Below, in pieces: positions 37,357 through 47,060 of a stretch of DNA of 64,000 nt (positions are counted from its first letter, which is position 1; each line of letters starts with the position of its first letter). The notes beneath the pieces are model-generated. The model made no database searches. It saw nothing but the letters and a program-made list of their open reading frames with translations, and was not told the origin of the DNA. The stretch lies in the sequence record OL770073.2; one strand, 5' to 3'. This stretch comes from Escherichia phage vB_EcoM-RPN226. The position numbers and the translations under genes are program-made.

Positions 37357-38069
37357 ATGAAACTAATCTTTTTAAGTGGTGTAAAGCGTAGTGGAAAAGA
37401 TACTACCGCAGATTTTATCATGAATAATTATTCTGCAGTTAAATATCAACTTGCTGGTCCTATTAAGGATGCATTGGCTTATGCATGGGGTGTATTTGCA
37501 GCAAACACTGACTATCCTTGTTTAACTCGTAAAGAGTTTGAAGGAATTGACTATGATCGTGAAACTAATTTAAATCTGACTAAATTAGAAGTAATTACGA
37601 TTATGGAACAAGCATTTTGCTATCTTAATAGTAAAAGCCCAATTAAAGGTGTGTTTGTTTTTGATGACGCAGTTAATTTCGTAGCATTTAACAAGATTGC
37701 TGACGTTATAAATAATATTGAAGATCAATGGTCAGTCCGTCGTCTGATGCAAGCCCTAGGTACGGATTTGATTGTTAATAACTTCGACCGCATGTATTGG
37801 GTAAAATTATTTGCTTTAGATTATCTTGATAAATTTAACTCAGGTTATGATTATTATATCGTTCCTGATACTCGTCAAGATCATGAAATGGATGCGGCTA
37901 GGGCGATGGGTGCTACAGTAATTCATGTAGTTCGTCCTGGTCAAAAATCCAATGATACTCATATTACAGAAGCTGGATTGCCAATTCGTGATGGCGATTT
38001 AGTAATTACAAACGATGGTTCTCTTGAAGAACTTTTTTCTAAAATTAAAAATACACTAAAGGTACTATA

Positions 38070-38070
<1 letters not shown>
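37357..38070 (+). CDS. 1: deoxynucleoside monophosphate kinase gp1
   Basis: 237 aa, P-loop GVKRSGKDT; MotA-box middle promoter upstream. Confidence 0.9.
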
Positions 38071-38767
<697 letters not shown>

Positions 38768-38779
38768 TTTCACAAAGTT

Positions 38780-38810
38780 GTTTACACGTTGATGAGGTAG
38801 TGATACTATT
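38780..38810 (+). promoter_or_regulatory. early promoter (GTTTAC -35, GATACTAT -10) for IPI-like gene
   Basis: GTTTAC at 38780-38785; -10 flanked by inverted repeat GATGAGGTA/TACCTCATC. Confidence 0.6.
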
Positions 38811-38839
38811 ACCTCATCAAAATTAATTAGGAAAATAAA

Positions 38840-39112
38840 ATGAAAACTTTCAAAGAATTTATCAATGAAGCTGCTTTTAACGAAAAAGTAAAAATTAGCA
38901 AAGCTGTCAAGACTATGATTGATAACATCAATTACCTATATGGTATTGATTTAACTGACTATGTAACAGTTGGTAACAAACGTAACTATTTCGTGTTTGA
39001 CATCTCTGAACTTGACCAGAATCAAATTAACAACATTGAGCGTTTTGCTAATGATAAGGGTCTTCGACACGAGCCTGGTGGCTATAAAAAATACGCAATT
39101 TATTTAAAATGA
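38840..39112 (+). CDS. ipI: internal protein I-like (capsid-targeted, candidate anti-restriction protein)
   Basis: 90 aa, N-terminal capsid targeting sequence MKTFKEFINEA with gp21-type cleavage sites after Glu; own early promoter at 38780. Confidence 0.65.
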   Translation: MKTFKEFINEAAFNEKVKISKAVKTMIDNINYLYGIDLTDYVTVGNKRNYFVFDISELDQNQINNIERFANDKGLRHEPGGYKKYAIYLK

Positions 39113-39145
39113 GTTTACTTTTAGATGGGGTAGTGATACTATTAC
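39113..39145 (+). promoter_or_regulatory. early promoter (near-duplicate of the 38780 promoter)
   Basis: GTTTAC at 39113-39118; shares GGTAGTGATACTATTACC with the 38780 promoter. Confidence 0.6.
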
Positions 39146-39170
39146 CCTATCAACTACAGAGGAGAATAAA

Positions 39171-39353
39171 ATGAAACGTTGTGAATTAATTCGAAATGTT
39201 GCTATTGCAATTTCTGCTTCCGCTTTTAGTTTTTCAATGTTTGTTGGATTTATATGCGGATTATTAACTACAGCAGAAAATGTGTTTTCACTTGTAGTAG
39301 CATTTTTAATTGGTTTAATCGCTATCGTTATGGATAAAATTTCTAAAGGTTAA
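39171..39353 (+). CDS. small hydrophobic membrane protein
   Basis: 60 aa with two predicted TM helices, early promoter at 39113, RBS gaggag. Confidence 0.45.
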   Translation: MKRCELIRNVAIAISASAFSFSMFVGFICGLLTTAENVFSLVVAFLIGLIAIVMDKISKG

Positions 39354-39355
39354 TA

Positions 39356-39643
39356 ATGATTCTTTATGCGAAAGTATCGTCCGTTGAAAATGGATATAAA
39401 TATGATCAAGATGCGGCTAAAGCCTTGATTGATGATTATGGCATTTTAACATGTTTTGAAGTTGAAAAGGTTTACATTGACCGTTCATCTTCTCAAGTTA
39501 AATTAGTAAAGGAAGACCGTAAATTTAATACAGTAAATTTTGATTTCTTTATTGAAACAGAAAAAGGTCCTCTTGAATATGATATTTTCAAGAATCCTTT
39601 GGGTCTTGAATGCATCGTAAATATGTATTATCATAAATGGTAA
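39356..39643 (+). CDS. hypothetical protein
   Basis: 95-aa ORF translationally coupled to previous (TAATAATG). Confidence 0.45.
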   Translation: MILYAKVSSVENGYKYDQDAAKALIDDYGILTCFEVEKVYIDRSSSQVKLVKEDRKFNTVNFDFFIETEKGPLEYDIFKNPLGLECIVNMYYHKW

Positions 39644-40319: not shown

Positions 40320-40360
40320 GGAACATAAATACTCTTAGAAATAGGAGATATTTATGTTCC
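40320..40360 (+). promoter_or_regulatory. 12-bp perfect hairpin sequestering segB start codon; SD in loop
   Basis: GGAACATAAATA (40320-40331) pairs with TATTTATGTTCC (40349-40360); ATG 40354-40356 in 3' arm; loop carries AGGAGA; 5' arm contains CATAAATA, a near-late-promoter. Confidence 0.6.
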
Positions 40361-41019
40361 ATTACACTTATAAAATAACAAATAAAATTAATAATAAAAT
40401 CTATATAGGCGCTCATTCTACCGAAAATTTAGATGATGGATATATGGGTTCTGGTAAATTATTAAAAAGAGCCCAAGACAAGTATGGTATAGAAAATTTC
40501 TCTAAAGAAATATTAGAGTTCTTTGACGATAAAACCTCTATGTTTGAGTCAGAAAAGAATATTGTGACTGAAGAGTTTTTAAAGCGCCCTGATGTTTATA
40601 ATTTGAAATTAGGTGGTGAAGGTGGTTGGGACCATTTAAACACTAAAGAATATTTGGATAAAAAGAAAGAAGCTTCCTTAAAAGGGGCTGCTGCTTTTAA
40701 AACCAGATTTGAGAACGACCCAGACCTTAAAGAAAAATATCGTAAAATGGGTTCAGAAAGGTTTAAACAGCTTTGGGATAATCCTAAGTATAGAGAGAAA
40801 TTTTTAAATACTAAATCTTTCTTGGGTAAGACCCATACTCCTGAAACTATTAATAAAATGAAAGAATCTCACGCCAAAAATAAACACCAACAAGGCGAAA
40901 AGAATTCCCAATTTGGTATGATGTGGATTCATTCATTAGATGAAAAAGTTTCTAAACGTATTAAGAAAACTGACCCAATTCCAGAAGGATGGTTTAAAGG
41001 TCGAAAAATGAAATTTTAA
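40354..41019 (+). CDS. segB: GIY-YIG homing endonuclease SegB-like, embedded in tRNA cluster
   Basis: 221 aa, GIY-YIG motifs YTYKITN...KIYIGAH; start codon sits in the 3' arm of a 12-bp perfect hairpin. Confidence 0.8.
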   Translation: MFHYTYKITNKINNKIYIGAHSTENLDDGYMGSGKLLKRAQDKYGIENFSKEILEFFDDKTSMFESEKNIVTEEFLKRPDVYNLKLGGEGGWDHLNTKEYLDKKKEASLKGAAAFKTRFENDPDLKEKYRKMGSERFKQLWDNPKYREKFLNTKSFLGKTHTPETINKMKESHAKNKHQQGEKNSQFGMMWIHSLDEKVSKRIKKTDPIPEGWFKGRKMKF

Positions 41020-41415: not shown

Positions 41416-41443
41416 AGCCCCAGCCGAAAGGTTGGGGCTTTTT
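41416..41443 (+). terminator. rho-independent terminator after stable-RNA region
   Basis: AGCCCCAGCC-GAAA-GGTTGGGGCT hairpin plus TTTT. Confidence 0.7.
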
Positions 41444-41445
41444 AG

Positions 41446-41453
41446 TATAAATA
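41446..41453 (+). promoter_or_regulatory. late promoter (TATAAATA) for CTS-protein gene at 41493
   Basis: TATAAATA directly after terminator 41416-41443. Confidence 0.5.
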
Positions 41454-41492: not shown

Positions 41493-41966
41493 ATGAAATC
41501 ATATGCTCAATTTTTAAATGAAGTGGCGTTAAATGAAGCATCCGCTTCAGATGTTCGCGCTGTAGCAACTGCTGCTATTAAAGCTGGTAAATATTCTTAT
41601 AAAGATGCTTCTGATGAATCCCGGTACAAGTTCTACGACGATATGAGAGCTGAAGGCTTTGTGGGTAACTATGTTACCACCGCCTGGAAAAGCCTGGTTG
41701 CTACTGGTGCGGCTTTCGAAAAACCTTCCGGTAAACCTGCTCCTAAAGCAGATCCTAAAGCTGCACAAGAAAAAAATATTGTTAAAGGAATTATCGCTAA
41801 ATATGAAGCTATCCTTAAAGAGCTTTTAGTAATCAAAACCGAAGGCCAAAAGTTAGCCCGTGCTTATAGTTTCAAAGACAACCCACATGCTCATGACCTA
41901 GAGTATGTTGAAGACATCCAAAAAATTATTAAAGACCGCATTTGGTCTGCTAAACAAATCAAATAA
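41493..41966 (+). CDS. capsid-targeted internal-protein-like protein
   Basis: 157 aa, N-terminal CTS MKSYAQFLNEVALNEA, flanked by two copies of the same terminator hairpin and preceded by TATAAATA. Confidence 0.55.
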   Translation: MKSYAQFLNEVALNEASASDVRAVATAAIKAGKYSYKDASDESRYKFYDDMRAEGFVGNYVTTAWKSLVATGAAFEKPSGKPAPKADPKAAQEKNIVKGIIAKYEAILKELLVIKTEGQKLARAYSFKDNPHAHDLEYVEDIQKIIKDRIWSAKQIK

Positions 41967-41972
41967 CATTTT

Positions 41973-42000
41973 AGCCCCGACCGAAAGGTTGGGGCTTTTT
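41973..42000 (+). terminator. rho-independent terminator after CTS-protein gene (near-duplicate of 41416 terminator)
   Basis: AGCCCCGACC-GAAA-GGTTGGGGCT hairpin plus TTTTT. Confidence 0.7.
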
Positions 42001-45486: not shown

Positions 45487-46289
<803 letters not shown>

Positions 46290-46290
46290 T

Positions 46291-46320
46291 GTTTACTTCC
46301 TCCAAGGACTTTGATACTAT
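46291..46320 (+). promoter_or_regulatory. early promoter upstream of denV remnant
   Basis: GTTTAC at 46291-46296 and GATACTAT at 46313-46320. Confidence 0.55.
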
Positions 46321-46347
46321 ACATTCATCAACTACTTGGAGGAAATT

Positions 46348-46422
46348 ATGACTCGTATCAATTTAACAACTTCAGAATTATTTCTGGTGGTAAGGCTTAA
46401 ACAGTTTACGCTTAAGTATTAA
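46348..46422 (+). pseudogene. denV: denV (endonuclease V) remnant: first codons only
   Basis: early promoter plus RBS GGAGG plus ATG encoding MTRINLT (T4 DenV N-terminus), then divergence and a stop after 24 codons. Confidence 0.5.
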
Positions 46423-46433
46423 TATGATATAAT
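46403..46433 (+). promoter_or_regulatory. candidate early promoter for IPIII-like gene
   Basis: GTTTAC at 46403-46408 and TATAAT at 46428-46433 (19-nt spacer, weaker). Confidence 0.4.
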
Positions 46434-46463
46434 TACTCTATCAAAACAAACAAGGAAACAAAA

Positions 46464-47060
46464 ATGAAAACGTATCAAGAATTTATCGCCGAAGCTTCTG
46501 TAGGAAAGGTCCAAGGCATTAATAAAGATGAGTGGACTTACCGAGGAAACGGCTTTGACAACCCAGGAAACGGCTTTGACCCTAAAACAGCCCCTATTGA
46601 ACGGTATTTAGCTACAAAGGCTTCCGACTTTAAAGCTTTCGCCTGGAAAGGACTTCGCTGGCGTACCGACCTAAATATTGAAGTTGACGGACTTAAATTT
46701 GCTCATATTGAAGATGTTGTTGCTAGTAACTTGGACGCAGCTTTTGTTAAAGCTGACTTTGACCTTCGTCGCTGGAATTTAAAACTGTTCTCTAAACAGA
46801 AAGGTCCTGTGTTTGTGCCTAAAGCTGGTAAATGGGTTATTGATAATAAATTAGCTAAGGCTGTCAACTACGCTGGTCTTGAATTCGCCAAGCACAAATC
46901 ATCATGGAAAGGTCTTGATGCAATGGCTTTCCGTAAAGAATTTGCCGATGTTATGGCTAAAGGCGGCTTTAAGGCAGAAATAGACACCTCTAAAGGTATG
47001 TTTAAGGACGCTAATGTTCAGTACGCTTATGCCGTTGCTAATGCAGCCCGTGGTAATTAA
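46464..47060 (+). CDS. ipIII: internal protein (IPIII-like, capsid-targeted)
   Basis: 198 aa, CTS MKTYQEFIAEA. Confidence 0.65.
   Translation: MKTYQEFIAEASVGKVQGINKDEWTYRGNGFDNPGNGFDPKTAPIERYLATKASDFKAFAWKGLRWRTDLNIEVDGLKFAHIEDVVASNLDAAFVKADFDLRRWNLKLFSKQKGPVFVPKAGKWVIDNKLAKAVNYAGLEFAKHKSSWKGLDAMAFRKEFADVMAKGGFKAEIDTSKGMFKDANVQYAYAVANAARGN

Follow-up and report, generated by a model that had tools for sequence, protein, structure and literature searches.

ip9, a candidate injected internal-protein gene carried in a promoter-hairpin cassette of a T4-like Escherichia phage

The ip locus between 57B and trna.4

The stretch of DNA considered here, to which we refer as the window, comprises 64,000 nucleotides of Escherichia phage vB_EcoM-RPN226 (OL770073.2) and is part of a Tequatrovirus genome. 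Its region 38300-39700 matches 834 phage records, nearly all of them T4-like, with Escherichia phage BYEP01 as the best match (99.4%). The gene order is that of T4 and comprises gene 1 (37357-38070), 57A (38070-38312), 57B (38312-38767, + strand), an open reading frame (ORF) of 90 codons plus stop (38840-39112, + strand), trna.4 (39171-39353, + strand) and trna.2 (39356-39643), followed by a group of eight tRNA genes that also includes a segB-like endonuclease.

The two borders of this internal-protein (ip) locus are conserved. On the left, 57B holds the same position in the window as in T4 and RB32, and its product is identified as the anti-CBASS phosphodiesterase Acb1 (Pfam PF23474, E 6.6e-60), so that a known counter-defence gene adjoins the ip cassette array. 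On the right, trna.4 encodes a predicted membrane protein of 60 aa that contains two hydrophobic segments, matches RB32 tRNA.4 and PHROG 1692 and is labelled 'predicted membrane protein' in the T4 record as well. Two further features of the right-hand side concern the tRNA region itself. The gene trna.3 is absent (window 39351-39358); trna.4 stops one codon sooner than in T4 and RB32, and trna.2 (97% identical to that of T4) begins 3 nt later. This deletion is common to BYEP01 and LH2, but not to sutha. Within the tRNA cluster, tRNA-Met(CAT) and tRNA-Arg are separated by an ORF of 221 aa (40354-41019), which takes the slot of the segB homing endonuclease gene in T4 and RB32.

The 90-aa ORF directly follows 57B and starts with MKTFKEFINEA, in agreement with a preliminary description of this DNA. 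A Shine-Dalgarno sequence, AGGA, can be read directly at 38829-38832 (+ strand), 7 nt 5' of the ATG, and the first ten codons (38840-38869, + strand) specify MKTFKEFINE, a putative capsid-targeting sequence with a predicted site for the prohead protease gp21 in I-N-E, immediately before A11. The ORF is enclosed by two copies of a promoter-hairpin element on the + strand. Cassette 1 (38780-38820) consists of a -35 element GTTTAC (38780-38785) and an extended -10 element TGaTACTAT (38801-38809); its inverted-repeat arms (38789-38799 / 38810-38820) would form, in RNA, a longer stem (38789-38802 / 38807-38820), which leaves the Shine-Dalgarno sequence outside the hairpin. Cassette 2 (39113-39153), which is predicted to serve trna.4, has the same organization, with GTTTAC at 39113-39118, an extended -10 at 39134-39142 and an RNA stem at 39124-39135 / 39140-39151. 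It ends 18 nt upstream of the trna.4 start, and the placement of a second promoter copy before a small membrane-protein gene, as previously reported, is thereby corroborated. The Rfam scan assigned no family to either hairpin and matched only the eight tRNAs.

The ip9 product and its N-terminal targeting sequence

Judged by its homologues, the ORF at 38840-39112 is ip9, a known variable internal-protein gene of T4-like phages. Its product is 88% identical over the full length to RB32 Ip9 (YP_803082) and 86-97% identical to named Ip9 proteins; for the T-even phages RB15, K3 and RB32 the identity is 86-88% across all 90 residues. It matches PHROG 7673 ("internal head protein") from end to end (E 5e-54, positions 1-90 of 90), and RB15 Ip9 (UniRef Q38376) belongs to the same family. 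This family is narrow, with 17 clusters in a database of 5.8 billion proteins and, at 50% identity, 14 representatives in a set of 1.84 billion. With the ip9 genes of RB15, K3 and RB32, the window gene has in common its locus, the targeting sequence and the flanking direct repeats. It differs from other alleles in combining MKTFKEFINE with the leader that is proximal to 57B, whereas most alleles combine MKTYQEFIxE with an internal leader; the beginning MKTFKEF, in place of the MKTYQEF of most Ip9 alleles, is the one seen in ipI, ip5 and ip7. Unlike in RB32-type arrays, ip9 is the sole ip gene in the array of the window. Both the gene and its architecture are already known (Repoila, 1994; Arbiol, 2010; RB32 annotation), the architecture since 1994 and again since 2010, and the assignment of ip9 adds nothing new on the latter.

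The targeting signal of such proteins has been dissected by mutagenesis, which assigned targeting to residues 4 and 7 and processing to residues 8 and 10, the prohead protease gp21 cleaving after the Glu of L/I-x-E (PMC9026906). The targeting sequence of T4 IPIII and IPII, MKTYQEFIAE, and MKTFKEFINE of Ip9 agree at position 4 (aromatic), 7 (F), 8 (I) and 10 (E). In its length (about 10 residues), its aromatic residue 4 and its Phe7, the N-terminus of Ip9 accordingly has the form of a targeting sequence, and a gp21 motif, I8-N9-E10, precedes A11. In 16 Ip9 sequences, F7, I8 and E10 are invariant and position 4 is aromatic in all except one, which has His, while residue 9 and the codons vary. 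The location between 57B and trna.4 is likewise that of an ip gene, being held by ipI in T4 and by ip5, ip9 and ip7 in RB32. The predicted mature protein (residues 11-90; 80 aa, 9.3 kDa, pI 8.9) is close in length and charge to IPI* (76 residues, pI 9.0), and its AF2 model (pLDDT 88, pTM 0.76) has the order helix-strand-strand-helix-strand-strand. Neither family nor fold matches of Ip9 gave any hint of a biochemical activity.

Taken as a sequence-based prediction, Ip9 is a candidate injected internal protein. MKTFKEFINE would act as a capsid-targeting sequence that carries Ip9 into the prohead scaffolding core, where gp21 would cut after Glu10, between I-N-E and A; the resulting mildly basic alpha/beta domain of 80 residues would be ejected along with the DNA. 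By analogy to T4 Ip1, Ip2 and Ip3, each of which inhibits its own GmrSD enzyme and gives no protection against those of the others (PMC12373910), the ejected Ip9 would most likely neutralise one specific host defence. T4 Ip2 and Ip3, the inhibitors of GmrSD from ECOR21 and ECOR17, are injected proteins with a targeting sequence, that of IPIII/IPII being almost identical to that of Ip9; on the other hand, their mature sequences are unrelated to Ip9 and their genes are found in the other ip locus, beside gene e.

Two other views of the protein have to be weighed against this proposal. The preliminary description regarded the product as IPI-like, and a diverged homologue of T4 IPI that inhibits the same GmrS/GmrD (CT596-type) enzyme would indeed explain the common slot between 57B and trna.4, the promoter-hairpin flanks, the similar size (90 versus 95 aa) and charge and the identity of the first seven residues. 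The likeness in size and position stands, but the homology fails at the level of sequence and of fold: BLASTP of T4 IPI against the window ORF aligns residues 1-9 and nothing more, with MKTFKEF as the shared stretch; the Ip9 profile does not find 2JUB (IPI*) among the PDB sequences, where an IPI query recovers its own structure at E 1e-44; 2JUB is absent from all three fold searches with Ip9, which did not return the IPI* fold of beta sheets flanked by N- and C-terminal helices; and the targeting sequences differ in length (10 residues in Ip9, 19 in IPI). Membership in the IPI family is therefore rejected, and we consider a shared ancestry with a shared enzyme target exceedingly improbable. 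Because only MKTFKEF is common to both proteins and 2JUB is missing from the fold searches, Ip9 is better described as a positional and functional analogue of IPI than as its homologue, probably with the same general mode of action. Alternatively, Ip9 might be an ordinary early cytoplasmic accessory protein outside the virion, with an N-terminus left over from recombination with adjacent ip genes. In favour of this, the promoter of ip9 is of the early type only: the late promoter TATAAATA does not occur directly upstream of the gene, and the nearest copy on the + strand lies at 37707, inside gene 1. The supply of Ip9 at prohead assembly would consequently have to come from early protein that persists or from transcripts that read through. 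Homologues of 72-74 aa from siphoviruses (Kagunavirus, Seuratvirus), which do not have the targeting sequence, point in the same direction. However, the targeting determinants are kept in all 16 T4-like Ip9 proteins in spite of the variation in residue 9 and in the codons, more distant members also bear MK[ST]F.E[FY][LV].E, and T4 ipI is arranged in the same way, with the same early promoter upstream, although IPI is known to be packaged and injected and to inhibit GmrS/GmrD. A purely cytoplasmic role for the T4-like protein is thus unlikely, and we retain Ip9 as a candidate virion protein; the literature library that was searched contains no report on its function or on virion proteomics, packaging, cleavage or injection.

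Three further ORFs with a targeting sequence were observed in the window. One of 157 aa (41493-41966; MKSYAQFLNE, PHROG 2280) is preceded by the late promoter TATAAATA at 41446-41453 and lies between two almost identical terminator hairpins (41416-41439 and 41973-41996). It is the counterpart of RB32ORF133c, annotated as 'flanked by 34 bp imperfect direct repeat', and looks like a second kind of repeat-flanked cassette. The other two make up the second ip locus (46008-47060), in which an ORF of 93 aa (46008-46289) is followed by an early-type promoter (46291-46320) and then by an ipIII homologue (46464-47060). As the 93-aa product is 48% identical to RB32 Ip5, it represents an Ip5-like paralogue in the other ip locus.

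Promoter-hairpin elements and the exchange of cassettes

The T4 early promoter consensus consists of a -35 element GTTTAC, a spacer of about 17-18 nt and a -10 element of the TAnnAT type that is preceded by TG. Both cassettes conform to it, and the TG-extended -10 is also called by the promoter scan. In the window, the pattern GTTTAC-N14-20-TGNTAYTAT has seven matches, all on the + strand, compared with 0.02 expected. T4 GenBank records annotate no promoter features for the ip region, so that the assignment rests on pattern and conservation; from these, ip9 is predicted to have its own T4-type early promoter, GTTTAC-N18-TGaTACTAT.

The two elements share an 18-nt core, GGTAGTGATACTATTACC, which occurs exactly twice in the 64 kb, at 38796-38813 and 39129-39146 and thus 333 nt apart (chance expectation 0.02 matches; two or more in 0 of 100 shuffles). 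The preliminary description had recognized both exact copies, at coordinates (38797-38814 and 39130-39147) that are one base too high. Around the core, the repeat spans 41 nt with 83% identity (38780-38820 / 39113-39153). The location of the -10 element inside an inverted repeat, also part of that description, is borne out by cassette 1, where arms of 11 nt are 100% complementary and the loop, GTGATACTAT, contains the TG-extended -10. Perfect 11-bp inverted repeats with a loop of at most 12 nt are found at 3 places in the window, versus about 0.5 in Markov simulations. The predicted RNA of cassette 1 has a 14-bp stem including G-U pairs (-18.1 kcal/mol, z = -4.0), that of cassette 2 a 12-bp stem, again including G-U pairs (-16.1 kcal/mol, z = -2.7). 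Among the seven promoter matches the hairpin is limited to these two ip-locus promoters, the other five folding at -1.8 to -3.2 kcal/mol. A scan of IMG/VR with the promoter pattern yielded 28 single chance matches, none of which had a hairpin or an ORF with a targeting sequence.

Elements of the same kind are widespread among relatives. T4 ipI is flanked by the same two, the upstream one being almost identical to cassette 1 of the window, and RB32 has four, which precede ip5, ip9, ip7 and trna.4 and of which the ip5 element is near-identical to cassette 1; in the RB32 annotation, Ip9 and Ip7 are already noted to be flanked by a '43 bp direct repeat'. Cassette 2 is of the same type as the trna.4 element of RB32, HMD-9, GiZh and LH2. 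Across eight Tequatrovirus phages, GTTTAC-N18-TGATA(C/T)TAT precedes every gene from 57B to trna.4, amounting to 21 elements, and a 49-nt element query matched 511 phage records. Since the same elements flank ipI and every cassette in the eight phages, cassette 2 is the ordinary trna.4 promoter, and by this comparison both copies belong to the regulatory equipment that each cassette of the locus normally has.

Further afield, the arrangement varies. In Gaprivervirus VR20 (locus L042, 2130-3673), the ip genes, ip9 among them, form a tight run with gaps of 8-9 nt that contain no promoter-hairpin elements, which indicates that the cassette architecture is not universal among Tevenvirinae. An element of Mosigvirus AV109 (L045, about 2020-2066) places the -10 in the hairpin loop with different arms, GGATGATGG / CATCATATC, and one of Karamvirus fGh-Ecl04 (L043, 2498-2548) has the same arms with a different -10 and is followed by a gene without a targeting sequence.

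The comparison of close relatives also points to an exchange of whole cassettes. Five orders were found between the borders, namely ipI (T4); ip9 alone (window, BYEP01, LH2 and sutha); ip9-ip7 (HMD-9); ip5-ip9-ip7 with or without a further 74-aa gene (RB32, VEc74); and ip5-ip6 (GiZh). The left and right arms of the hairpins fall into few types that are freely combined. Matched arms fold at -15 to -18 kcal/mol, whereas the Ip9-Ip7 junctions of RB32, HMD-9 and VEc74 join an Ip9-side left arm to a 57B-type right arm and fold at -4.4 to -7.3 kcal/mol, the outcome that is expected of a crossover inside the shared core. A junction of another kind is found in the window itself. Its leader agrees with the RB32 ip5 leader at 45 of 45 positions, a match that runs on through the first 17 coding bases, and ip9 codons 12-25 agree with RB32 ip9 at 42 of 42 positions, which places the junction within the targeting-sequence codons. 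At the sequence level, this joining of the 57B-proximal leader to an ip9 body directly supports cassette shuffling. Together with the conserved targeting codons, the elements would furnish every ip gene with 40-50 bp of homology on both sides, and homologous recombination between them, in co-infection or within one genome, would add, delete or swap ip cassettes. The arrangement 57B-ip9-trna.4 of the window could in this manner be derived from an ip5-ip9-ip7 array like that of RB32 or VEc74 by two exchanges, one in the targeting codons and one in the promoter core. A hybrid was also noticed in phage OLB35, whose 'ip7' product (P0017, 77 aa) has an Ip7-like body fused to the last ~33 residues of Ip9 (…NNIQRFANDKGLRHEPGGYKKYAIYLK), suggesting recombination or deletion inside ip coding regions too.

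Recombination cassettes of this general design have been defined as promoter-early stem-loops, or PeSLs (Arbiol, 2010; PMC2839356). That article credits Repoila (1994) with having seen PeSL-like sequences at both IP loci of T-even phages, and it describes the IP-locus elements as having T4 early promoters and weaker, AT-rich stems, which makes them analogues, not homologues, of PeSLs; they are possibly behind the shuffling and plasticity of IP genes (PMC2839356; PMC4122927). The window element fits this description. With the PeSLs of RB49, phi1 and other T4-like phages (Arbiol, 2010; Comeau, 2014), it shares a design in which repeated cassettes of promoter and stem-loop border the small accessory genes of hyperplastic regions and serve as sites of recombination; in the 21 elements of the eight phages, repeated copies flank the accessory cassettes, and arm assortment and chimeric junctions mark the points of recombination. 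PeSLs, however, combine a sigma70-consensus promoter with an adjacent GC-rich terminating stem-loop. The window elements instead have a T4 early promoter and an AT-rich stem without polyG/polyC tracts that encloses the -10, and they have no U-tract and no called terminator.

How the two copies arose and what the hairpin does can be judged from the same data. The preliminary description read the duplicated promoter as a sign of modular shuffling and proposed a comparison with related phages. Shuffling is supported by the arm assortment, the leader junction and the five cassette orders, but the notion of a local duplication did not survive that comparison. An exact 18-nt repeat at a distance of 333 nt would by itself be compatible with a recent duplication in this genome; for both copies, however, orthologues stand at the equivalent positions of T4, RB32, sutha, LH2 and others, and flanks and arm type are particular to each copy; the two are also only 83% identical outside the core and followed by different leaders, so that we give a local origin practically no credence. 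More room has to be left for the view that the hairpin functions mainly in RNA, as terminator, attenuator or 3'-end stabiliser in read-through from 57B, as in PeSLs, and that recombination is a by-product. The RNA hairpins are stable and lie exactly between cistrons, 5' of the ribosome-binding site, PeSL stem-loops have been shown to terminate transcription (PMC2839356), and pairing is retained by the arm variants of a Mosigvirus and a Karamvirus. Transcription from the promoter within the cassette should begin in the right arm, and its products would thus lack the left arm and the hairpin, whereas 57B read-through would carry it just 5' of the ribosome-binding site. Against an RNA role, the stem is not followed by a U-run, the hairpin is not among the calls of the terminator scan, and three phages retain chimeric elements in which little of the stem is left. 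Covariation does not exceed that of shuffles either: in eight aligned elements 75.0% of cells are paired, compared with 74.4% in shuffles, and one pair is changed on both sides, although the register of the alignment is correct, with 75% of cells paired versus 36-63% when it is slid. A principal function in RNA is therefore possible but rather doubtful. Our preferred reading, to which we assign a probability of roughly 0.85, is that the gene is ip9, one of the polymorphic internal-protein genes of the hyperplastic locus between 57B and the tRNA cluster, set among standard promoter-hairpin cassettes that are swapped by recombination.

The Ip9 domain beyond T4-like phages

The locus is a classic illustration of the way in which T4-like phages maintain a limited repertoire of injected counter-defence proteins whose members can be exchanged rapidly. 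As Ip1, Ip2 and Ip3 each block a different GmrSD, Ip9 and the other unassigned Ips are obvious candidate inhibitors of further defence variants, and their targets matter for predicting the host range of therapeutic T4-like phages.

A new, if small, point is the occurrence of Ip9 homologues outside this group, with no targeting signal in siphoviruses and, in one case, built into a large Ackermannviridae protein as a domain. With mature Ip9 as query, tblastn retrieved 182 phage records. The siphovirus homologues, of 72-74 aa and devoid of the targeting sequence, include those of Kagunavirus UTEC10 (51% identity; L004, 3004-3222) and Seuratvirus KS_A3 (L006, 2992-3216), which indicates that the domain can work without encapsidation. 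In the Ackermannviridae phage YX22 (L005, 316-3234), a protein of 972 aa (PHROG 3867) contains the domain at residues 897-954 and has an N-terminus, MSKLSFLQFMQE, that is similar to a capsid-targeting sequence. With distant members both carrying and lacking it, the targeting sequence gives the impression of a module added to a small phage domain of wider distribution.

One may go further and regard the mature Ip9 domain as a mobile anti-defence module, not confined to T4-like phages, from which the T-evens made an injected protein by recombining a cytoplasmic counter-defence protein behind the targeting sequence and promoter cassette. This extension is offered tentatively. If it holds, the target could be a defence that is common to the hosts of these phages. 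Several of the phage groups in question carry hypermodified DNA, and the target might then be a modification-dependent nuclease other than the GmrSD types that are blocked by Ip1-3. The domain versions without targeting sequence in other phage families would provide a simple route to the function via plasmid expression.

The genomic surroundings of the siphovirus genes differ from each other, the Kagunavirus gene being the first after a long intergenic gap and the Seuratvirus gene standing within a run of small ORFs. Their products are labelled "internal head protein" by annotation pipelines, probably a name carried over.
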